A DNA stretch of 7,640 nt. Source: a virus (lineage: Duplodnaviria; Heunggongvirae; Uroviricota; Caudoviricetes). Both the position numbers and the translations under genes were made by a program. The stretch lies in the IMG/VR virus record IMGVR_UViG_2778261354_000005. The stretch is one strand, 5' to 3'. Positions 1 through 7,640 of the stretch are shown in pieces (the first letter of the stretch is position 1; each line of letters opens with the position of its first letter). The notes under the pieces were generated by a model. It was not told the origin of the DNA and did no database searches. It worked only from the letters and a program-made list of their open reading frames with translations.

Positions 1-163
1 CTCGTTAGCCCATGAATAACAATCAGAAAGTACCATAACAGACCCGAAGAAAATGAAATATAAGAGAAGATCAACGGGTGAGGAAAAAGTTCAAAAAATC
101 GCTGCCGGGGAGGAAGGAAACTACCGGATGGAAAGAGTCCCCCTAAAGCAGACTGACAGACAT

Positions 164-189
164 CACAAATCCCCGGGTGGGGATTTGTG
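164..189. repeat. Perfect 11-bp inverted repeat / hairpin (CACAAATCCCC-gggt-GGGGATTTGTG) in the ORF-free gap downstream of the KilA-N gene
   Basis: Read directly: 164-174 is the exact reverse complement of 179-189, with a 4-nt loop. No U-run follows on either strand, so it is not a canonical intrinsic terminator. Function unknown. Confidence 0.6.
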
Positions 190-201
190 TATAAGAGACA
201 G
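183..201 (-). other. Solitary IS50/Tn5 outside-end-like 19-mer (minus strand CTGTCTCTTATACACAAAT); no transposase or partner end in the window
   Basis: 17/19 identity to the Tn5 outside end CTGACTCTTATACACAAGT as I recall it. The first 16 nt equal the mosaic end. The inner part of the 19-mer forms the right arm of the 164-189 hairpin. Confidence 0.3.
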
Positions 202-296
202 GCATAAACAGGGGCATCAGCTCTGAACCGGGTCTGAACAATACGATCCCCATACGCGGGGCAATTTCAGGGGTCAGTAGTGCTCTCACGGTCACC

Positions 297-1112
297 TCAA
301 TGAACGGTATCGAGCAGCTTTAACAGCTCAGGGAATCGGGATTCGAAGAAATGCGGCTGCGTCTCGCGCGGATTTGCGGGACTGGTGATGTTCTTGCCGA
401 ACATGCAGCCTTTCGCTGTCAGCGACCAGAATTTTTTGATGTTGTTAATCGCGGTACGGCTGTATCGTTCGCGTTGTTCAACGATCCCCAGCTTCGCCAT
501 CTGGTGATATGCCTGATTAGCCGTCAGGCGGATACCATACTGCTTCAGCAGTGCACTCAGCGACAGCGTAGGGCGGCTTGAACCATCTGGCGCATCAGCA
601 GGTGCATCAATGGCATAGATCGGCATAAGTTCAGGAAGACCAGCTACCTTTGATAATTTCTGGTATGCACCAAGTTTCGAGGAGTTTGACAGATTTAGAG
701 TCTTTGCTGCTGATTCAAGCAGAATGACCCCGGATTTAATTTTGTCGGATGTGGTTTCTTCTGGTGATGAATTATGAAGCGCATCAAAAGTACGTATCAC
801 TTTTAAGCTGAATGCCGGGCTGATCCACATTGCATATGCATAGACCAGCTCTTTACAGACATACGTCCCACCATTGCGCCCCTGAATGGTGATGACAGGA
901 ATACTACGGGAATCTCCCGTAGTTTCTTCTTCCAATAATTCCACAAGAGCCTTCGTTTCAGGACGACGCATAAACTCGTGAACTTCCAGCGAACGGGAGG
1001 AGCGATTCTCACCAGCGGCAAGAAGAGCAGCTTTCTGAAGGTCGTTAAGACAGTAGTTAGATTCGAAGTACTGGCGCACAGAAACGCCATCAATTACAAG
1101 CAACTGATTCAT
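297..1112 (-). CDS. KilA-N domain protein with a KilA-C/ANT-like C-terminal region (phage antirepressor-like)
   Basis: The ORF track gives 297-1124. The GTG at 1124 lies inside the Shine-Dalgarno GTGGAG, and the ATG at 1112 follows GGAG by 6 nt, so it is the preferred start (271 aa). The N-terminus carries the KilA-N signature (..GRNGGTYVCKELVYAYAMWISPAFSLKVIRTF..). The C-terminal ~90 aa resembles the ANT/KilA-C pattern. Confidence 0.8.
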   Translation of the reverse strand: MNQLLVIDGVSVRQYFESNYCLNDLQKAALLAAGENRSSRSLEVHEFMRRPETKALVELLEEETTGDSRSIPVITIQGRNGGTYVCKELVYAYAMWISPAFSLKVIRTFDALHNSSPEETTSDKIKSGVILLESAAKTLNLSNSSKLGAYQKLSKVAGLPELMPIYAIDAPADAPDGSSRPTLSLSALLKQYGIRLTANQAYHQMAKLGIVEQRERYSRTAINNIKKFWSLTAKGCMFGKNITSPANPRETQPHFFESRFPELLKLLDTVH

Positions 1113-1175
1113 TGGTTTCTCCACAAATTTTTATCCACGAGCGGGACTGCACTCCCTTTTCGTTGATGCAGGATG

Positions 1176-1269
1176 AACTTACTGCGATTTTTAATAGTTA
1201 TCAAGGATACACTGTTCATAAATACAGTATCTTTAACGAGGTAATACCCAAATTTAGGGTGTTGCTCAA
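1176..1269 (-). promoter_or_regulatory. Two candidate sigma70 promoters for the KilA-N gene, flanking the SOS box
   Basis: On the minus strand: TTGAGC (1269-1264)-N17-TATTAC (1246-1241), which places the SOS box about +5 to +25; and TTGATA (1204-1199)-N17-TAAGTT (1181-1176), which places the box 5 nt upstream of the -35. Hexamers were matched by eye only. Confidence 0.45.
1210..1229. promoter_or_regulatory. LexA (SOS) box upstream of the KilA-N/antirepressor-like gene
   Basis: The minus strand reads TACTGTATTTATGAACAGTG, a 16/20 match to the consensus TACTGTATATATATACAGTA, with an intact CTGT-N8-ACAG core. It lies in the 150-bp rusA/KilA-N intergenic region. Confidence 0.75.
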
Positions 1270-1274
1270 TTCCG

Positions 1275-1670
1275 TTACCGAGTTGCTAATTTGCAACTCG
1301 CTTTTTCGTACTTACTGATAGTGATCTCGACCTTCCCCTCCGGGATAACCGGTCCCCACTCCACCAGCATTCTTTTCACCTGTCTGTCGTCTTCCCACAC
1401 ACCCGCGTGGGTCAGGGCGTCAAACAGCGCCTTGTTATAGTTGTCCAGATCGCGGATCCGGTTATCCGGAGGAAACAACACGATCTCCACTGAAGCAGGT
1501 GCCGACGTTGGTTTCGGCAGACGACGTAACTGCTCAACTATTGCTGCACACGCCGCGCTCTGGAATTTTCGCCCCGCCGCGCTTATCAGGCTCTTACCAG
1601 CAAACGCCCCTTTGTTGGGGTGTCGCCAGTACGTGTTCACGCTGGGCGGAAAAGGCAGTATTAGCTTCAT
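1275..1670 (-). CDS. rusA: RusA-family crossover junction endodeoxyribonuclease (Holliday junction resolvase)
   Basis: 131 aa. It has the PPSxNxYWR N-terminal motif and the RDLDNYxKAxxDALT catalytic-Asp motif typical of RusA. Its ATGA start overlaps the upstream stop, and GAGGGG lies 9 nt upstream. Confidence 0.9.
   Translation of the reverse strand: MKLILPFPPSVNTYWRHPNKGAFAGKSLISAAGRKFQSAACAAIVEQLRRLPKPTSAPASVEIVLFPPDNRIRDLDNYNKALFDALTHAGVWEDDRQVKRMLVEWGPVIPEGKVEITISKYEKASCKLATR
1279..1306 (+). terminator. Plus-strand intrinsic-terminator-like hairpin embedded in the 3' end of the minus-strand rusA gene
   Basis: CGAGTTGC-taattt-GCAACTCG is an 8-bp perfect stem with a 6-nt loop, followed by C-TTTTT (1301-1306) on the + strand only. 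The minus-strand side has an A-run before the stem and no U-run after it. Confidence 0.45.
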
Positions 1671-1993
1671 ACTTTCAGGCCCCTCTCATGTAACCAGTGG
1701 GCTGCACGCAGCCTGGCGTTTGCCTCACCGGCAAGCAGGGCGCGGATAATCCCGACCGCCTCGCTGTCGTCGTCCTTCACCGCGGTATGAAGAGTGATAC
1801 CCCGGGCCACGCCACGCTTTATCGTGATGACACCTTTTTTCTCCAGTGCGCGAAGATGCTCCACCGCTGCATTCACCGAACGGTATCCCAGCATGGTTGC
1901 CACCTCCTGATTGGTTGGCGGGAAGCCACGTTCTTTCTGATAAGAAATCAGCATATCCAGCACCTGCTGCTGGCATTGAGTTAATGTCGTCAT
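1667..1993 (-). CDS. LexA N-terminal DNA-binding-domain-only protein (winged HTH; no S24 peptidase domain)
   Basis: 108 aa. Residues ~4-68 align by eye with E. coli LexA residues ~5-69, with about half the positions identical to my recollection, including the recognition-helix region RS-NAA-EHL-AL--KGVI and the following RGI-L. The protein ends about 40 aa later, so it has no Ser/Lys catalytic domain. ATGA overlaps occur at both ends. Confidence 0.85.
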   Translation of the reverse strand: MTTLTQCQQQVLDMLISYQKERGFPPTNQEVATMLGYRSVNAAVEHLRALEKKGVITIKRGVARGITLHTAVKDDDSEAVGIIRALLAGEANARLRAAHWLHERGLKV

Positions 1994-2643
1994 GCCGCCA
2001 TCTCCCTGACCAGTTTTTCCGCCTGCTGGCGAACCTGCGCCAGAAACGCCTCACCACATGCCTCAAGTTCATCGCGCCCGATGTAGCTGATTGCCGCTCC
2101 CTTCCAGGTCTTGTCGAAAACAGCAATAGCACCAGCGAAGAAAGCACCTGTTGGCACCTGCTTTTCGTCTTTCGGGATAAACCAGGCTGGCAGTTCAAAA
2201 CCAATACGCCCGCGAATAAAAGCAATATGATCTGCATCTTCCGGCCACCACACTTCGCTGGTGGCCGCTTTGATCAGGAAAACATAGCGCCCGCCCTTAT
2301 CACGCATGGCACTGGCATGTTTCATGATGTAACGCATGCCGGTGATGTATTGCCCCTCATGCTGACTGGCGCGGCTGTATGGGGGATTACCAAAGGCAGC
2401 ACCTTTAAGCTCCGCAAGACGTTCTGACCAGTCATGCGCCAGCGCGTTGTCTTCCGCCGTGTAATACGCGGCACATTTGGCGTTATCACCGTCAGTGAAC
2501 AGATCCAGAACAAACGGACCAAACAAGGTGTTAATTCCCCAGAAAATGTTGTCCGGCGTGCGCCACTGATCGCCCACTTCCTTCAGTTCATGGGCTGGTT
2601 TGTTCCGCAGTTCTACCAGCGCCTGGCAATATTTATTACTCAT
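1990..2643 (-). CDS. Phage Dam-type DNA N6-adenine methyltransferase
   Basis: It has the NPPY catalytic motif (..AAFGNPPYSR..) and a WRTPxxxF N-terminal motif typical of the phage_N6A_met/Dam family. The preferred start is the ATG at 2643 (MSNKY.., 217 aa), preceded by GGGGG, rather than the 2688 start in the ORF track. Confidence 0.88.
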   Translation of the reverse strand: MSNKYCQALVELRNKPAHELKEVGDQWRTPDNIFWGINTLFGPFVLDLFTDGDNAKCAAYYTAEDNALAHDWSERLAELKGAAFGNPPYSRASQHEGQYITGMRYIMKHASAMRDKGGRYVFLIKAATSEVWWPEDADHIAFIRGRIGFELPAWFIPKDEKQVPTGAFFAGAIAVFDKTWKGAAISYIGRDELEACGEAFLAQVRQQAEKLVREMAA

Positions 2644-2735
2644 TAAGCCCCCACGTAAAAAGCATCCGCAATGTCTCCGGAAGTACACCCCGGATGGGCT
2701 TCAATGAATTTCTGAACTTCATTCAAAAGACTCAT
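2643..2735 (-). CDS. 30-codon ORF (MSLLNEVQKFIEAHPGCTSGDIADAFYVGA), possibly a wHTH-like fragment, translationally coupled to the methyltransferase
   Basis: Not in the ORF track because it is too short. A strong SD, AGGGGGTGA, sits 2-3 nt before the ATG at 2735. Its stop TAA shares one base with the methyltransferase ATG (TAATG). It fills the only gap in an otherwise overlapping operon. Confidence 0.35.
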   Translation of the reverse strand: MSLLNEVQKFIEAHPGCTSGDIADAFYVGA

Positions 2736-2737
2736 GA

Positions 2738-3733
2738 TCACCCCCTGAATCCTTCCGGGATCTGGCTGTAGTCCACGTTGTCGTAACTGGCTTTGAAGTA
2801 CGGGTCCTCGCGTCTGGCTGCAGATACCGCAGGAACTTCCCAGGATTCTTCGAAATGACGATCCGGACCAAAGAACGTCGACGCCTGCTTCACGAACTGG
2901 GTACCGGTATTTCCAGAGACACGCACCCAGGCGGCATAGCGTTTCACACCGTCGAGCATGGTTTCGGGTGTCACACCTTCCCTGATTCGGGCTTTCCAGG
3001 CTTTAAAAGCGGCGGATTTTGAATTACCACCAGCACGTTTGGGATATTCCTGCCAGGCCTGTTCAAATTCCGGTGAATATTCCTGTCTGGCAGAACGCGC
3101 TGGTGCAGACGCGTCAGCGGATGCGCCAATAGTGTTTTTAGTCTCCGTTGTAATCTCTGTAGTAATCTCTGTAGTAATCTCTGTATTTGTATCAACATTC
3201 GGCGTATCCCCTGTTCCGTTATGACGTCGGGGGGTGTTCCGTTTTAACGTAATAGCTGTATCGCTGATTGCATTATTGCTGTTACTTTCTGGCGAAACAG
3301 AAGAAGGTGTGGTGATGGCCGCAATTGCCTGTGGGTTGATCCCGACAAACAAAATATTGCTGCATTTCACCCCATCGAGCATTTCCACCGTGCGTAAATC
3401 CAGAGTAATAAACCCTGCATCGCGCAGACGCTTCAGCGCATCTGCGGTTTCCCTTTTCCCGAAACCAAACTGCTCAGCAAACGCCTGGTAGCTTCTTTGC
3501 AGTTTGTCGCCCTGAAAACGCTTGCGATATCCCAGCAACGCTCCGGTGTGCTCATCCCTGACCTCTGTCGGGCGGTACCAGTAAACGATCTCTGAAAGCA
3601 GAGCGATAGCCGTCGCATCCGGACGCCCACTGGGTAGTCTAATATATTTCCACCAGGTCGCAGGTGTAACATTGCCGGAAATATTAATTTGACCAATAGC
3701 CATAACTTCCGGTGTGGGGGCGTAACGGCTCAT
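2738..3733 (-). CDS. Replication initiator, lambda O-like in architecture (N-terminal wHTH, repeat-bearing linker, C-terminal domain)
   Basis: 331 aa. It occupies the expected position in the early operon. The N-terminal region resembles the Phage_rep_O/replisome-organizer type (..AIALLSEIVYWY..ETADALKRLRDAGFITL..). The linker is encoded by tandem 12-bp repeats, as with lambda ori inside O. The C-terminal motif EFEQAWQEYPKRxGxxSKxxAFKAW is common in phage replication proteins. ATGA start overlap with a GGAGG SD. The family assignment is by eye. Confidence 0.7.
   Translation of the reverse strand: MSRYAPTPEVMAIGQINISGNVTPATWWKYIRLPSGRPDATAIALLSEIVYWYRPTEVRDEHTGALLGYRKRFQGDKLQRSYQAFAEQFGFGKRETADALKRLRDAGFITLDLRTVEMLDGVKCSNILFVGINPQAIAAITTPSSVSPESNSNNAISDTAITLKRNTPRRHNGTGDTPNVDTNTEITTEITTEITTETKNTIGASADASAPARSARQEYSPEFEQAWQEYPKRAGGNSKSAAFKAWKARIREGVTPETMLDGVKRYAAWVRVSGNTGTQFVKQASTFFGPDRHFEESWEVPAVSAARREDPYFKASYDNVDYSQIPEGFRG
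3138..3185. repeat. Tandem 12-bp direct repeats (GTAATCTCTGTA x3 perfect, plus one degenerate copy); candidate ori iterons inside the initiator gene
   Basis: 3150-3161, 3162-3173 and 3174-3185 are identical, and 3138-3149 matches 8/12. The repeats are in frame and encode TEIT-TEIT-TEIT. Confidence 0.8.
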
Positions 3734-4029
3734 ACAACCTCCTTCCGCAGCATGAGAATTGTGTAGCCACGCGCAGGTTGTAGTCTGGCTTTTGCATCAA
3801 TAGTAAGCGTTGCAATTTTTCGGATATGAAGATAACCAGCTCTTTCCAGTGCCAGGGTTTCCCTGAATATCGCTTGCTTAGAACAACAGCAGAAATCAGC
3901 AAGCACCTGATGATCAATAACTCTCTCGCCTTCACCGTCTGAAGAACCCGACATCAAAACACGCAACATAATCAGGCGCTGAATCGGGTTATCGAAAGCA
4001 CATCCGCACACAAACTGAAAACAGTTCAC
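3730..4029 (-). CDS. Hypothetical 99-aa Cys-rich protein with a possible winged-HTH
   Basis: GTG start with a GGAGG SD 6 nt upstream. It has a GTGA overlap with the upstream gene and an ATGA overlap with the downstream gene. It has six Cys, including a CCC run. The segment ..SKQAIFRETLALERAGYLHIRK.. looks like a wHTH. No family recognised. Confidence 0.6.
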   Translation of the reverse strand: MNCFQFVCGCAFDNPIQRLIMLRVLMSGSSDGEGERVIDHQVLADFCCCSKQAIFRETLALERAGYLHIRKIATLTIDAKARLQPARGYTILMLRKEVV

Positions 4030-4250
4030 GCCACACCTCCCAGACGCTTAAACATTTTTCCGGAGCAAAAGGCTATAAGCGGCATACTGACGCGGTAATT
4101 ACGGCCCAGCGGTTCACAAACCACCTTCTGACATTCACGGTCAACCAGGCTAACACGTAGAACATGCCCAGCAGGCGTGGTGTACCACTGACCCGGACGA
4201 GGACAACGGAAAGTATGATTGGTAAACCGTTTGAAAATATTCCGGATCAT
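4026..4250 (-). CDS. Hypothetical 74-aa protein (possibly DUF4222-like)
   Basis: ATGA overlap with the Rha ORF stop and GTGA overlap with the next gene. The size and the W-Y..G..V.V pattern are reminiscent of small lambdoid early proteins. The family call is weak. Confidence 0.55.
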   Translation of the reverse strand: MIRNIFKRFTNHTFRCPRPGQWYTTPAGHVLRVSLVDRECQKVVCEPLGRNYRVSMPLIAFCSGKMFKRLGGVA

Positions 4251-5407
4251 TTGCGCCCCCTTACCTCTGAAGGGTTCAGCGACAAATTTATGAGACAGGC
4301 CAGCGCCGAAGCATCATTAATATAGTCATATAAGCTAACAGCCAGCGGAGATTCGGCTTTTGCCAACATAGGATAAAGCTGCTGCAGCCAGACCTGATGA
4401 ATTGATGAAATGTAGGAACAGAGAACGCTGGCGTTATGTGCAACGTCGCTCGGTACAGCGGGCTTTGAAAGCTGTTTCTCCATCTGGTTAAAGGCATTTA
4501 TGTATGCCTCTTTGAACCGGGCAGCACGTTTACCCGTGAAACCCATAGCAAGAAACGCAAAACCGTCTCGTGTGATTTGATAGCAAGGGAGCTTGCGTGT
4601 ACCACCGTTCGGTTGATTTACCGAAATCGATGTCTCCGCAAAATTGCGGGCACAAAACTCTGGGGAACAATCCAGAGTGCGGATCTTTTTCAGCACATCG
4701 TCGTGACGCTTGGAGAAGAAGTTGGCAACAGCCAAAGAAGTGGTAACGGCCTGGCCGTTGTCAATGGTGATTTCAGGTTGAGTGAGGGCTGGGATCGTAG
4801 CCATGATGGCAGCCTCCGTTGACAGTGAAAAACTTCCACCACCGGAAACGCCAATTTCACTGGTGGTGAACTGGACGGGGTTGGCGTAACCGGCGTCAAC
4901 GGAGACCGGCGCACCTTTCGGTGCCCCCGCCCAGCCCACCATAATCTGGATGTGAGCAAATGCGGACGATAAAAAAGACGCTGGCGCGTCATACATCGCC
5001 GTTGACAATTTCAGGACGCCAATCCCGGCACCCGCTTTATAAGGTGCCTGAGCAGTGTAACGTCCCGGAATTGCAGAATCAATATGCTGGTGGTCCTTCA
5101 CACTCAACAAAATCACGCCTGAATTTCCACAAAGGACTAAAGCACTCATGCGGGTAGTCTTTGCGAAGATAGATAACGCGCTGTGTTTCTGGCTCCCAAC
5201 GAATAACATGGACATAAAGCCCTCTTCCGTCACGAAACCAGCGGTTAAGTTCCTGCACAACTCGCCCCCCACAGTCAGGTAAAGTTCTCTGTGGTTACTT
5301 ACAGCCAGGTGATTTGGTAATCTGCATTCATGCCGTAACAACAGGTGTTCAGCGACGCTGACCACCAGCTGTTGCGACAAACGGTTATTTGCCGTTAAAC
5401 TATTCAT
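4247..5407 (-). CDS. 386-codon ORF: an unknown 201-aa N-terminal region fused in frame to a Rha-family phage regulatory protein (C-terminal 185 aa)
   Basis: Residues ~212-330 carry the Phage_pRha pattern (..TTSLAVANFFSKRHDDVLKKIRTL..YQITRDGFAFLAMGFTGKRAARFKEAYINAF..). The ATG at 5407 overlaps the YmfL-like stop (ATGA). There is no stop codon between the N-terminal region and the Rha part. Confidence 0.65.
   Translation of the reverse strand: MNSLTANNRLSQQLVVSVAEHLLLRHECRLPNHLAVSNHRELYLTVGGELCRNLTAGFVTEEGFMSMLFVGSQKHSALSIFAKTTRMSALVLCGNSGVILLSVKDHQHIDSAIPGRYTAQAPYKAGAGIGVLKLSTAMYDAPASFLSSAFAHIQIMVGWAGAPKGAPVSVDAGYANPVQFTTSEIGVSGGGSFSLSTEAAIMATIPALTQPEITIDNGQAVTTSLAVANFFSKRHDDVLKKIRTLDCSPEFCARNFAETSISVNQPNGGTRKLPCYQITRDGFAFLAMGFTGKRAARFKEAYINAFNQMEKQLSKPAVPSDVAHNASVLCSYISSIHQVWLQQLYPMLAKAESPLAVSLYDYINDASALACLINLSLNPSEVRGRK
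4802..4817 (-). promoter_or_regulatory. Internal ribosome-binding site plus ATG at the start of the Rha domain (alternative 185-aa product, 4247-4804)
   Basis: The minus strand reads GGAGG (4817-4813), then ctgccatc, then ATG (4804-4802). This is a consensus SD with 8-nt spacing, exactly where Rha-family proteins normally begin (MATIPALTQPEITI..). Confidence 0.55.
5289..5304. promoter_or_regulatory. Weak SOS-box-like CTGT-N8-ACAG motif inside the 5' part of the 386-codon ORF
   Basis: CTGTGGTTACTTACAG has an intact core, but the spacer is GC-containing and the flanks are non-consensus (CT..CC), so predicted affinity is low. Confidence 0.25.
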
Positions 5408-5961
5408 GCGTTAGTTTCTCCACAACCAGAAGCAATCGACGCCACGACGCCCGGAGCTGCACACTCGCGGGCGTTACTATTTTCTGGAGCGCAGAAGATT
5501 TTGTAGACCAGTGCTGCATGCTCCTGGAGCTTCGAAATTGAAAGATACAGTTCGTCGTTAATTGCTGTCTTCTCATGCGGTTCCACTACACCGTCTTCGA
5601 TTGCTGAACGAATCTGTTTTGAATAACTGCCGATCTGTTCAATGACTTCCAGTAAACGCTGGTTAATATCGGCATTGTCCACATCCTCGACGTCAGGAAG
5701 AGACACAAAGACGCCATTTGCAGACTGCGCCACAGCGTCAGCAATGAAGTGAGTGCCACCAGCACGTTGTAAAATCATTGCCCATCCCAGCGGGAAAATC
5801 TGATCGCCATCGGCACGAAGGCGGTTAAATAATGCGTTCTCTGTTACATCCAGCCACTCAGCAGCTTCAGCGTAACCCTCCGGCAACGCCGCGATAGTTT
5901 TTCTGACAGCTTTCACGTACCACTCAGGCTGTTTTTCCACTTTCCAGTTATGATTACCCAC
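5404..5961 (-). CDS. ymfL: YmfL-family putative regulatory protein (occupies the cII-like position after cro)
   Basis: 185 aa. GTG start with a GGAGG SD 6 nt upstream, and an 8-nt overlap with the Cro-like gene. The size and position (immediately after cro in an e14-type immunity region) match my recollection of e14 YmfL. The assignment rests on synteny and memory, not a search. Confidence 0.6.
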   Translation of the reverse strand: MGNHNWKVEKQPEWYVKAVRKTIAALPEGYAEAAEWLDVTENALFNRLRADGDQIFPLGWAMILQRAGGTHFIADAVAQSANGVFVSLPDVEDVDNADINQRLLEVIEQIGSYSKQIRSAIEDGVVEPHEKTAINDELYLSISKLQEHAALVYKIFCAPENSNARECAAPGVVASIASGCGETNA

Positions 5962-6214
5962 GGCTTACCTCCTGTTCCTGTGGTTTAAACCCATTCTGGT
6001 TTTGGCTAGATTGAAAACGTGCCGGATAAAGAATCTGCATTTCGCTGATTTCACCCTTAAAAAAATTGGCCAGACGTTCTGCAAGATCGATAGATGGAAT
6101 TTGTTCCAGTCTTTCAATACGACTCAGCGTCGCTGGATTGACCTGAACGCCAGCAGCAACATGCTGCAAAGTAAATCCGTGCGTCTTACGCACATTCCGT
6201 AATGGTGATTGCAT
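5954..6214 (-). CDS. Cro-like XRE-family HTH regulator
   Basis: 86 aa, divergent from the repressor gene. The HTH segment is ..FTLQHVAAGVQVNPATLSRIERLEQIPS... A GGAGG SD (6223-6219) lies 4 nt before the ATG at 6214. Confidence 0.8.
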   Translation of the reverse strand: MQSPLRNVRKTHGFTLQHVAAGVQVNPATLSRIERLEQIPSIDLAERLANFFKGEISEMQILYPARFQSSQNQNGFKPQEQEVSRG

Positions 6215-6311
6215 ATTACCTCCACATATTGCGTGATGAGCATATTATTTCACGCAAATATTTTGCGCAAGTTGATTTGCTTAACGCGCAATAAAGAAAT
6301 GTAATAAACGC
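6215..6311. promoter_or_regulatory. OR-like divergent control region: PR-like promoter (-), PRM-like promoter (+) and repeated TTGCG/CGCAA operator half-sites
   Basis: PR-like on the minus strand: TTGCGC (6270-6265)-N17-TAATAT (6247-6242). PRM-like on the plus strand: TTGCTT (6277-6282)-N17-TGTAAT (6300-6305). This predicts a start about 7 nt later at the A of the cI ATG (6312), and no SD is present, implying a leaderless cI mRNA as in lambda. Dyads: TTGCTTAACGCGCAA (6277-6291), CGCAAATATTTTGCG (6253-6267) and TTGCGTGATGAGCAT (6229-6243), with centres 24 bp apart. Confidence 0.65.
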
Positions 6312-7004
6312 ATGAACATAGGAAACCGAGTCAGACAACTTCGCCAGGCGAAGAACATGAAAATCGCCGATCTCGCTGAAGCAATAGGAGTGGATGCGGC
6401 GAATATCTCACGCCTGGAAACAGGTAAGCAGAAACAATTCACTGAACAAGCCCTGAGTAATATTGCCAGGAGCTTAGGTGTTGATATTGCTGATCTCTTT
6501 ACCTCAGACGTCAAAAGTAATACTGTATTTAAAAACAGTATTAGTGAGGATGTTGCGCAGGTGAAGGATGTATTCCGTATTGAAATGCTGGATGTCAGTG
6601 CCAGTGCGGGAAATGGCCTTATCCAGGGCGGTGATGTCATTGATGTGATTCATGCCATTGAATACAGAACTGATAATGCTGTATCGATGTTTGGCGGACG
6701 GCCAGCCAATCACATTAAAGTTATCAACGTTCGTGGGGACAGTATGTGTCCAACCATTGAGCCAGGAGATCTCATCTTCGTTGATGTCAGTATCAATCAG
6801 TTTGATGGAGATGGTATCTATGTATTTGGTTTTGATGATAAAATTTATGTCAAACGACTGCAAATGATACCTGACAAACTACTGGTGATTTCTGATAACC
6901 AGATTTACCGTGAATGGGGAATTACCAGCGAAAATGAACACCGGTTTATGGTCTTTGGAAAGGTCTTAATCAGCCAGTCACAAACCCTTAAGCGACACAA
7001 TTAA
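6312..7004 (+). CDS. cI-like prophage repressor: XRE HTH plus LexA/S24 autopeptidase domain
   Basis: 230 aa. N-terminal HTH (..IADLAEAIGVDAANISRLETGKQ..). Candidate Ala99-Gly100 cleavage site (SASAGNG). Catalytic Ser144 lies in GDSMCPTI and Lys181 in YVKRL. The Ser-Lys spacing is 37 residues, as in LexA. Confidence 0.9.
   Translation: MNIGNRVRQLRQAKNMKIADLAEAIGVDAANISRLETGKQKQFTEQALSNIARSLGVDIADLFTSDVKSNTVFKNSISEDVAQVKDVFRIEMLDVSASAGNGLIQGGDVIDVIHAIEYRTDNAVSMFGGRPANHIKVINVRGDSMCPTIEPGDLIFVDVSINQFDGDGIYVFGFDDKIYVKRLQMIPDKLLVISDNQIYREWGITSENEHRFMVFGKVLISQSQTLKRHN
6521..6540. promoter_or_regulatory. Near-consensus LexA (SOS) box inside the cI-like coding sequence
   Basis: TACTGTATTTAAAAACAGTA is a 17/20 match to TACTGTATATATATACAGTA, with perfect 8-bp arms AATACTGT/ACAGTATT (6519-6542). 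It encodes N70-I77 in the interdomain linker. Confidence 0.7.
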
Positions 7005-7024: not shown

Positions 7025-7046
7025 AGCCACCCAAAGGTGGCTTTTC
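7025..7046 (+). terminator. Rho-independent terminator of the repressor gene
   Basis: AGCCACC-caaa-GGTGGCT has a 7-bp stem and a 4-nt loop. Its last base begins the run TTTT (7042-7045), and it starts 21 nt after the cI stop. Confidence 0.75.
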
Positions 7047-7059
7047 ATTACCCTTTAAA

Positions 7060-7112
7060 TTGCATATCTCGCAATAAAAACACTTGCATAATGCGCAACT
7101 TCATTTTATCTT
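7060..7112 (+). promoter_or_regulatory. OL/PL-like region: two operator-like dyads and a rightward promoter
   Basis: TTGCATATCTCGCAA (7060-7074) and TTGCATAATGCGCAA (7084-7098) share the TTGC-N7-GCAA architecture of the 6277-6291 site, and their centres are 24 bp apart. The candidate promoter TTGCAT (7084-7089)-N17-TATCTT (7107-7112) overlaps the second dyad. Confidence 0.5.
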
Positions 7113-7118
7113 TCTTTC

Positions 7119-7570
7119 CAGACAAACAAACAAGGTACTAACAAAATTTGGTTGTAACACGGCGTATGGCACATGCGTCGTTAGCGGTCTGGGGACGTTA
7201 AAGGGGACAATCCACTCCTTGCTCGAGCAAACAAACCAGGTAGCCGGAATGTGCAAGTCAATGATGATGCTGATAAGACGCCTAACCAGCGTGGCGATTC
7301 GGTTTGACGCCTGGGAAGAGACCAGGGTGCAACGATGAGGGCATTTATGGAGCCGCGACAAAGTGTGGTGCTGTAACTGGCTAAGTGCTCTCAGCGTTGT
7401 GGTAATCCGCGAAATGGCGCGGCGGTAAGTATGGCGGGGTTACTCTTTCCCCGTTGAGGACACCGGATTGTCAGGTTGACCATACGCCTGAGTGACAACC
7501 CCACCACAACAGCCACTGCTTTGGCGGTACCAGTTTGTACCCTTGCTTCCGGCTGGTACCGCTCTTTTTA
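7119..7570 (+). ncRNA. Candidate long untranslated, structured leader/ncRNA downstream of the PL-like promoter
   Basis: No ORF has both a credible start and an SD; the best are peptides of 8-31 codons. There is dense complementarity, including nested helices at 7396-7510. It ends at a 10-bp hairpin plus T-run. The extent and the existence of the transcript are inferred, not shown. Confidence 0.3.
7524..7570 (+). terminator. 10-bp perfect hairpin followed by CGCTCTTTTTA: an atypical terminator and/or a boxA-like nut element
   Basis: GCGGTACCAG (7524-7533) pairs with CTGGTACCGC (7553-7562), leaving a 19-nt loop. The sequence then continues as CGCTCTTTTTACAA (7560-7573), which resembles boxA (lambda CGCTCTTA; rrn TGCTCTTTAACAA). 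The large loop weakens a terminator call. Confidence 0.35.
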
Positions 7571-7640
7571 CAAAACAGAGAAGAGCATCACCGGACGACG
7601 GGCTCATAACCCAATCCATCCGGGCGGCTGCCACCGCAGG

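Follow-up and report, generated by a model that had tools for sequence, protein, structure and literature searches.

What lies between the repressor gene and the first gene of the early-left operon in a lambdoid prophage that has no N gene? The question is raised by a viral DNA of 7,640 nucleotides (nt), IMG/VR record IMGVR_UViG_2778261354_000005 (Caudoviricetes), which is here called the window and in which positions 7113-7640, directly after a PL-like promoter, hold no convincing gene. An earlier note, made from the sequence alone, had listed four possible explanations for this segment: an unusually long structured N leader, an RNA antitermination element similar to put of phage HK022, a regulatory non-coding RNA (ncRNA) driven from PL, or a decayed gene. 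The third of these is the one which gains support, as the segment contains a homologue of the 190-nt precursor of DicF, a small RNA (sRNA) that inhibits cell division, a DicF-type hairpin and, ahead of both, a large covarying RNA, with transcription across them being predicted. Judged by its sequence relationships, the region is a construction of mobile RNA modules, designated A, B, T1 and C. The account considered probable, though well short of certain, is that an N-less lambdoid prophage of the SfV/mEp460 type has here the non-coding leader of its early-left (PL-type) operon, and that this leader functions as a repressor-controlled precursor of stable RNAs, with the hairpin T1 attenuating transcription.

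The window represents the immunity region of an SfV/mEp460-type lambdoid prophage of Escherichia coli, with a CI-like repressor open reading frame (ORF) at 6312-7004 (+) and a cro-like gene at 5954-6214 (-). Numerous E. coli chromosomes contain almost identical copies, as do phages PhiR47_1, mEp460, cdtI, 2H10 and several Stx2-converting phages. A chromosomal copy from E. coli strain 26561 (L001; window coordinates equal L001 positions plus 999) was used to follow the sequence past the window edge in search of the first gene, which proved to be yfdP. RefSeq leaves the interval between the repressor gene and yfdP blank in this copy, and the yfdP ATG, at L001 6708 (window-equivalent 7707), lies 67 nt beyond the window edge; it is followed by yfdQ, yfdR, more phage genes, a helix-turn-helix gene and an integrase. 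The same layout is found in mEp460, Stx2a_1447 and 2H10, from which the N gene is absent. A long N leader in the literal sense is rejected, since the homologous phages proceed directly to yfdP, yfdQ and yfdR.

In a sensitive BLAST comparison with phage genomes, the leader of about 610 nt splits into blocks which are found separately elsewhere. For block A (about 7147-7403) the matches are P1, P7 and D6, at about 79%, and phiV10/TL-2011b, at about 82%. Block B (about 7397-7519) has its counterparts, at 85-90%, in PPompW phages and in a phage of Actinobacillus, while the final stretch, beginning at about 7522, is shared with SfV, SfII and ST64B. Both conserved blocks and covarying base pairs, by which the earlier note had proposed to judge the region, were found among its homologues. 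In the leader of SfV itself (locus L159, 1650-2700), T1 has the same loop and is accompanied by module C and a yfdP homologue, and modules A and B are absent. Their place in SfV is taken by orf33 (98 amino acids (aa), acidic, not N-like) and also holds a segment known from downstream of dicF in the Qin prophage, GTGGTGAATGCGGCTsAGCGCACGCGG. The short strings GTTGTGG and GCTGTGTGTAGTC repeat at module boundaries in the manner of recombination joints.

Homology between the leader and the DicF locus is extensive. Positions 7397-7519 align with K-12 Qin (locus L125, 2752-2874) over 123 nt at 89% identity, or 91% over a 114-nt query; the alignment is colinear, the homologous Qin segment ends 8 nt before dicF, and the next conserved string after module B, TTTGGCGGTAyCAGTTT, is the DicF core. 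Two DicF species derive from the DicA-repressed dicBp transcript: one of 190 nt, with a 5' end generated by RNase III, and one of 53 nt, produced by RNase E (PMC10448788). The 5' end of the 190-nt form precedes the module B homology by about 6 nt; this homology, together with the DicF core, makes positions 7400-7569 the counterpart of the long form. The proposed fold of module B consists of a hairpin and two stems that cross to form a pseudoknot; across 9 sequences, 95.9% of the alignment cells are paired, with 4 covarying pairs, compared with 38-54% in controls with slid partners, which lends the structure modest support. The segment annotated in phage P1 as a 'dicF-like region' overlaps the module B homology at about 75% identity and with compensatory changes, while the PPompW and Actinobacillus pPE4 phages carry, in this order, a repressor gene, module B, a DicF or DicF-like hairpin and a division-inhibitor gene.

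T1 stands where DicF would, at the 3' end of the conserved 190-nt precursor segment, and has the DicF scaffold, a GGCGGUA...CAGU hairpin followed by a U-tract. Its 10-bp stem, in two parts, encloses a 19-nt loop, and the 45 nt ahead of the T-run fold with an energy of -21.2 kcal/mol. The string UUUGGCGGUAnCAGUUU is shared with DicF, and UUUGGCGGUACCAGUUU is common to both at 16 of 17 positions. The loop differs from that of DicF and is longer; as the scaffold is kept but the 5' part, the loop and the model score differ, T1 is regarded as a divergent paralogue and not as a DicF orthologue. Among 52 module A loci, a T1-type hairpin lies 220-640 nt downstream in most, with the design (GGCGG, a variable stem, a C/U-rich variable loop, CCGCC and UUUUUACA), and the space between is occupied by module B or by tRNA-Arg(UCU). 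On this comparison, DicF-type hairpins appear to be a family in which the scaffold stays constant and the loops have diversified, and module A is often found with them; the variation of the C/U-rich loop among phages on that scaffold suggests trans-acting sRNAs with differing targets. A second sRNA-like terminator (T2), CAUUGCUUCCAGUUCGCCCACUUCGGUGGGCAUUUUUUU, is often seen about 100 nt past the DicF-type hairpin in epsilon15-like morons and in many prophages; it occurs in a phiV10-like locus (L004, 3466-3505) and in P1 (locus L003, about 840-885), where the terminator of the 'dicF-like region' is of this type, and it has no Rfam match.

The largest part of the leader, module A, spans about 260 nt (7145-7403) and is a real structured RNA. 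A motif scan of viral contigs yielded 35 representatives below 95% identity, 21 of which were used for covariation. In these 21 sequences, 98.5% of the cells are paired under a model with four nested helices (P1, P2, P4 and P5) and two pseudoknots (PK1 and PK2), and 10 pairs are compensatory; shifting the 3' partners by 1-3 columns lowers the paired fraction to 26-46%. PK2 covaries, CACC:GGUG being replaced by AACC:GGUU in the window, and PK1 (GCAC:GUGC) is invariant across the sequences and is put forward as a proposed pseudoknot only. The closing stem P6 was predicted by RNAalifold from 11 diverse homologues, with compensatory arms (GAGCA/UGCUC against GAGUA/UACUC and UGGCU/AGUCA); its 3' end is the recurrent junction GUUGUGG, and the modelled duplex is a likely RNase III substrate. 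Long invariant single-stranded tracts, for example GGUAGCCGGAAUGUGCAAG, are also present. The structure rests on covariation and not on energy, since module A folded alone as a single sequence is no stabler than its shuffles (z -0.26).

Searches of Rfam 15 over 7113-7640 gave no match at the gathering score and only noise at E<=10, and nothing but tRNAs was matched in the homologues of P1 and phiV10. The covariance model of module A, R1, detected no second copy in the window, including the PR side, and nothing in the HK022 immunity region or in Qin. Against the Rfam C4 clan, modules A and B gave a single match of 13.4 bits (E 4.7) on the opposite strand at 7418-7520, which is probably noise.

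Despite this absence from Rfam, module A is common. Of 5426 complete E. coli genomes, 1834 (34%) carry it, with 2114 matching records and 554 places on plasmids. In a sample of 60 E. coli records drawn from the whole ranked set of 2114, no RNA annotation covers it, and one exception carries any feature there, a P1-like plasmid with a 'hypothetical protein' under the match. When the motif was scanned in one genome per species, 22 of 24 loci belonged to Enterobacterales (21 Enterobacteriaceae and Candidatus Erwinia dacicola), the other two being metagenome-assembled genomes labelled Bacillota and Oscillospiraceae. The carriers are temperate phages of three unrelated types: lambdoid phages, in which module A lies in PL leaders combined with no fewer than four different repressors; P1, in the ban operon; and epsilon15-like phages, in morons. 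Its place in mEp390, a phage related to HK022, is behind the repressor gene, as in the window. In P1 it scores 149.6 bits with R1 and lies between trnI (tRNA-Ile) and ban, 2 nt after the tRNA. In the epsilon15-like phages (phiV10, SPN1S and a Klebsiella phage) it opens a small moron in the portal-terminase interval, and its junction runs straight into tRNA-Arg(UCU). Module A is hence independent of any single regulatory circuit, which fits a trans-acting cargo RNA.

The P1 operon resembles the leader in being controlled by a repressor, C1, and in having both modules, but their order is reversed, with 2.3 kb of tRNAs and tci genes between them; furthermore, module B is followed in P1 by a T2-type terminator instead of T1, and module A lacks P6 and runs directly into ban. 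Concerning the tRNA neighbours, the last four bases of the GUUGUGG junction, GUGG, are the acceptor 5' end of tRNA-Arg(UCU) (L004, 3235-3318). Module B of the window opens with the same GUGG (7396-7404) and ends in ...CCCCACCA (7497-7508), so that a tRNA-acceptor-like pairing is possible; this hints at module B as a possible substrate of RNase P, like the precursors of C4. The C4 RNA of the P1/P7 immI region (RF01695) offers a further likeness, being a structured phage regulatory RNA cut from an operon transcript, and a true C4 copy lies elsewhere in the window; modules A and B, however, do not match its clan.

The most plausible guess is that module A is a stable, processed RNA which acts in trans or forms a ribonucleoprotein (RNP) and accompanies DicF-type sRNAs, and not a cis antiterminator. 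A bolder proposal, that it represents a new class of phage ncRNA whose double pseudoknot docks on a host machine, either as an antiterminator unlike put or as a host-manipulating RNP RNA, is offered tentatively and would more probably fail than hold. It appears to be previously undescribed, having no Rfam family, no RNA annotation and no literature match; the literature search used the exact sequence, and older phage papers may contain an earlier description. The Pas sRNAs were considered as relatives and set aside, being unrelated sRNAs of the late region.

Module C starts directly after the U-tract of T1 and is conserved with SfV, SfII and ST64B. Its stem of about 19 bp is completed beyond the window edge, the 3' arm lying at window-equivalent 7641-7659 in L001, just before the ribosome-binding site of yfdP. 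A similar long-range stem follows dicF in Qin, where RNase III makes a 72-nt DicF from read-through transcripts (PMC5069750), and module C is accordingly considered a putative RNase III site. The likeness between the two loci thus extends to a promoter under the immunity repressor (predicted in the window) and to a long duplex behind the hairpin, which is an RNase III site in Qin. They differ in that the hairpin precedes yfdP in the window and dicB in Qin, and in that module A lies upstream in the window and ydfABC in Qin. The coordinates of all these elements are collected in the table.

Features of the leader and of its upstream boundary (window coordinates; + denotes the strand shown)
Feature	Position	Strand	Details
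cI-like repressor intrinsic terminator	7025-7046	+	hairpin AGCCACC-CAAA-GGTGGCT, then T-run; directly 3' of the cI ORF
Two OL-type operator dyads, TTGC-N7-GCAA	7060-7074, 7084-7098		24 bp apart; OR-side match 6277-6291
Putative PL-type promoter	7084-7112	+	-35 TTGCAT 7084-7089, 17-nt spacer, -10 TATCTT 7107-7112
Module A core, pseudoknotted RNA	7145-7332	+	covariance model R1 158.6 bits, E 4e-49
Module A, P1 hairpin	7160-7180	+	
Module A, P2	7184-7191 with 7237-7244	+	
Module A, PK1	7169-7172 with 7251-7254	+	proposed pseudoknot
Module A, P4 hairpin	7278-7292	+	
Module A, PK2	7284-7287 with 7301-7304	+	pseudoknot, covarying
Module A, P5 hairpin	7310-7326	+	
Module A, P6 closing stem, about 19 bp, imperfect	7327-7403	+	arms about 7330-7346 and about 7383-7399; variable apical insert
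Module B, homologue of the 190-nt DicF upstream body	7400-7509	+	hairpin, S1, S2
Module B, hairpin	7407-7422	+	
Module B, stem S1	7429-7434 with 7480-7485	+	
Module B, stem S2	7465-7473 with 7493-7501	+	crosses S1 (pseudoknot)
T1, DicF-type hairpin/intrinsic terminator	7520-7569	+	UUUGGCGGUACCAG, loop UUUGUACCCUUGCUUCCGG, CUGGUACCGC, UCUUUUU
Module C, long near-perfect hairpin, 5' arm and interior	7570-7640	+	ACAAAACAGAGAAGA...UCUUCUCUGUUUUGU

Upstream of the modules, the boundary with the repressor gene has the expected elements. The hairpin proper of the cI terminator covers 7025-7042. The pattern TTGC-N7-GCAA occurs 4 times in the window, where chance would give 0.27 occurrences, and 0 of 200 shuffles reached 4; this confirms the two dyads of OR-site design, 24 bp apart, that had been pointed out before. 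A rightward promoter over the operators just past the cI terminator had also been claimed; a candidate does exist, as a prediction. TTGCAT-17-TATCTT, the only one, was read directly from the sequence and overlaps the second operator; it was not listed by the promoter scanner because its 8 of 12 matches fall under the cut of 9 of 12. Transcription from it would start at about 7119-7120. The similarity to phages of other immunity types sets in at about 7131-7140, and therefore the conserved RNA starts almost at the predicted transcription start.

Taken together, these elements suggest the following course of events. Departure of the CI-like repressor from both operators would allow transcription from about 7120, and the transcript would fold into module A, module B with T1 (the counterpart of the 190-nt DicF) and module C. 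T1 may serve at once as the 3' hairpin of a base-pairing sRNA of the DicF family and as an intrinsic terminator, at which most transcripts would end to give stable ncRNAs. Read-through RNA would be cut, probably by RNase III in both long duplexes as in the dicBF operon, and the cleavage would free the RNAs together with the messenger RNA of yfdP-yfdQ-yfdR...xis-int. The resemblance of the long duplexes beside the units to the RNase III sites of dicBF is counted in favour of this scheme.

A number of observations weigh against it. The promoter, the start, termination and processing are all predictions, and the promoter candidate is weak, agreeing with 8 of the 12 sigma-70 consensus positions. 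The Rfam DicF model (RF00039, threshold 48 bits) gave no match at E<=10 in searches with 196 nt (7395-7590) or 851 nt, in a test where K-12 dicF, as positive control, scored 76.7 bits. T1 is without the 5' 12 nt of DicF, an Hfq-binding RNA, and without the AU-rich site (UUAUCAAUUUU in Qin) at which RNase E makes the 5' end of DicF. Its pairing with the ftsZ start region (RNAduplex, -27.5 kcal/mol) is equalled or bettered by 88% of shuffles, in a crude test by which the DicF-ftsZ duplex (-38.5 kcal/mol) is itself non-significant; DicF-like targeting of ftsZ by T1 is hence unsupported. Given the missing Rfam match, the missing 5' parts and a pairing at shuffle level, a DicF-like function is an extrapolation from scaffold and precursor. 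Moreover, the arrangement that is found consistently in phages lacking N, in which one or two strong terminators stand behind a structured RNA and ORFs come after them, is also what a cis antiterminator would be expected to look like. A target in cis for the T1 loop was sought in the window and the downstream operon; the 12-nt complementarity found in yfdQ is at chance level, 369 of 3000 shuffles being equal.

The competing explanation that survives best, although it is judged unlikely, is that module A is a cis-acting processive antiterminator made of RNA only, a larger analogue of put, which, folded on the nascent PL transcript, would modify RNA polymerase, replace N and permit reading through T1 (T2 elsewhere) into the early-left operon. 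It draws on position: module A begins about 25 nt from the predicted PL start, where putL lies in HK022, mEp390 carries it in the putL position, all lambdoid carriers examined are without an N gene, and one or two strong terminators followed by ORFs on the same strand nearly always come after it. Its pseudoknots and invariant single-stranded stretches are of a kind typical for a macromolecule-docking RNA, and the helix P1 stem CGGCG/CGUCG (with a G.U pair, then AGCG) resembles the base of putL stem I. Placement near the promoter and ahead of a terminator holds for the window and the other lambdoid carriers but not for P1, where the promoter-proximal terminator is about 2.3 kb upstream of module A and none separates module A from ban. 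In the epsilon15-like phages module A belongs to a small moron and is joined directly to a tRNA, and the PR side is without a second copy. T1 with the same loop, module C and the same downstream operon are all present in SfV while module A is missing, an argument against its being an obligatory antiterminator; likewise, DicF-type terminators are read through in Qin, PPompW and pPE4, which do not have module A.

As for the HK022 put-like element that had been suggested earlier, membership of the put family fails, neither sequence nor model giving significant similarity, and a put-like function is weakened by SfV and P1. The best BLAST match of the leader to the HK022 immunity region, with putL and putR extracted, is 13 of 15 nt (E 2.3), and a blastn search with putL returned 21 records, none of the SfV/mEp460 type, with put homologues in only about 10 other phages. 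The segment ACGGCG...CAUGCGUCGuuAGCG at 7159-7186 can be set beside ACGGCG...CAUGCGUCGggAGCG of HK022 (locus L153, about 2776-2805, minus strand), the G.U included; this similarity is non-significant (E 2.3) and the rest differs. What module A and put have in common is a structured pseudoknot RNA directly past PL in an N-less lambdoid phage, with terminators after it. Put, which promotes terminator read-through in cis in dependence on the zinc-binding domain of the RNA polymerase beta' subunit, has, however, about 70 nt and two stems, its 5' strand pairing into the loop of stem I, in contrast to about 190-260 nt and five or six helices, and module A is also found away from operon starts and beside tRNAs, besides being absent from SfV.

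The comparison with lambda nutL/N leads in the same direction. The modules are likewise the first element past OL/PL, and the 8-nt boxA-variant string previously noticed, CGCTCTTT, is indeed present at 7560-7567, but a stem of about 19 bp follows it instead of a short boxB-type hairpin, and there is no N-like arginine-rich ORF in the window or downstream, where yfdP comes first. The meaning given to the string is not borne out: it is the descending 3' arm of T1 with the U-tract and homologues carry CCGCCCTTTTT at that place, so that its reading as a conserved boxA is rejected. On the whole, the facts from P1, epsilon15, SfV and Qin favour a trans-acting cargo RNA over antitermination, leaving a cis role in the lambdoid setting as the less likely option.

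According to a further explanation, which is held to be distinctly improbable, the region is an ordinary long 5' leader of yfdP, the structures of which act in cis only, through stability, RNase III control of translation or attenuation. Module C does occlude or abut the ribosome-binding region of yfdP, T1 is able to serve as a plain attenuator, and the lambda N leader is a precedent of RNase III control of the first PL gene. Nonetheless, the homologous DicF species are stable trans-acting RNAs, and A, B and T1 each precede other genes elsewhere (ban, tRNA-Arg with a DUF2829 ORF, dicB, kil and unrelated ORFs), for which reason the modules are not considered to be tied to yfdP. The yfdP product itself has 120 aa, no Pfam match and an N-terminus that is not arginine-rich.

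The scarcity of ORFs in 7113-7640 was confirmed, no credible coding ORF being found. The sole plus-strand ORF above 30 aa that reaches into the segment (7084-7338) has a TTG start and begins within the operator, ATG-started frames are 20-22 aa long, and the minus-strand ORFs, of 86, 41 and 64 aa, start with TTG or GTG; none of the ORFs in the segment has a Pfam match. In the module A homologues no frame is open consistently and no three-base codon periodicity is seen, while the lengths of two variable segments modulo 3 spread over all three classes. A decayed or protein-coding gene is rejected on account of the missing shared frame, the non-triplet indels, the lack of periodicity and Pfam matches and the strong base-pair covariation. 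That the region encodes small proteins or a gene remnant, such as the minus-strand ORFs annotated as hypothetical in some phages, is very unlikely, for although many homologues have long stop-free minus-strand runs and depositors have annotated ORFs there (mEp460_036, mEp460_037 and a 'Phage protein' in 2H10), RefSeq is gene-free in 59 of the 60 sampled E. coli records and the substitutions are compensatory within RNA helices.

Other features of the locus are of a regulatory kind as well. On the minus strand, a C4 antisense RNA (4859-4946, Rfam 81 bits) is adjacent to an isrK Hfq-binding RNA (4971-5047, 62 bits). Both are on the PR-side strand and sit within a 386-aa ORF (4247-5407), the mEp460 counterpart of which is annotated as a Rha-type antirepressor, and the pair looks like an antirepressor control module of the P1 immI or Gifsy-1 isrK-anrP type in the early-right operon. 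A scan for tRNAs and tmRNAs in the window found none. In the chromosomal copy L001, positions 1-5300 are a prophage remnant with an avs2 (AVAST type 2) defence gene, tail-fibre genes and a truncated helix-turn-helix pseudogene, which occupy the place of the cro and replication genes of the window; the repressor, the ncRNA leader and the yfdP...int block are kept, adjoining a tRNA-Thr.

DicF would, from these results, be one member of a wider family of phage hairpin sRNAs, which share precursor and scaffold and differ in their seeds, and which the Rfam DicF model misses. While this part extends known biology, module A is the more interesting one, being a large structured RNA found in about one third of complete E. 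coli genomes and in P1 that has no Rfam family. It occupies the place of nutL-N or putL in a widespread lambdoid group without a known early antiterminator. Were the antiterminator reading true, module A would account for early-left expression in the large N-less group of SfV-type phages; more generally, its role, once understood, could explain how those phages control the early operon or bring to light a new phage RNA directed at the host.

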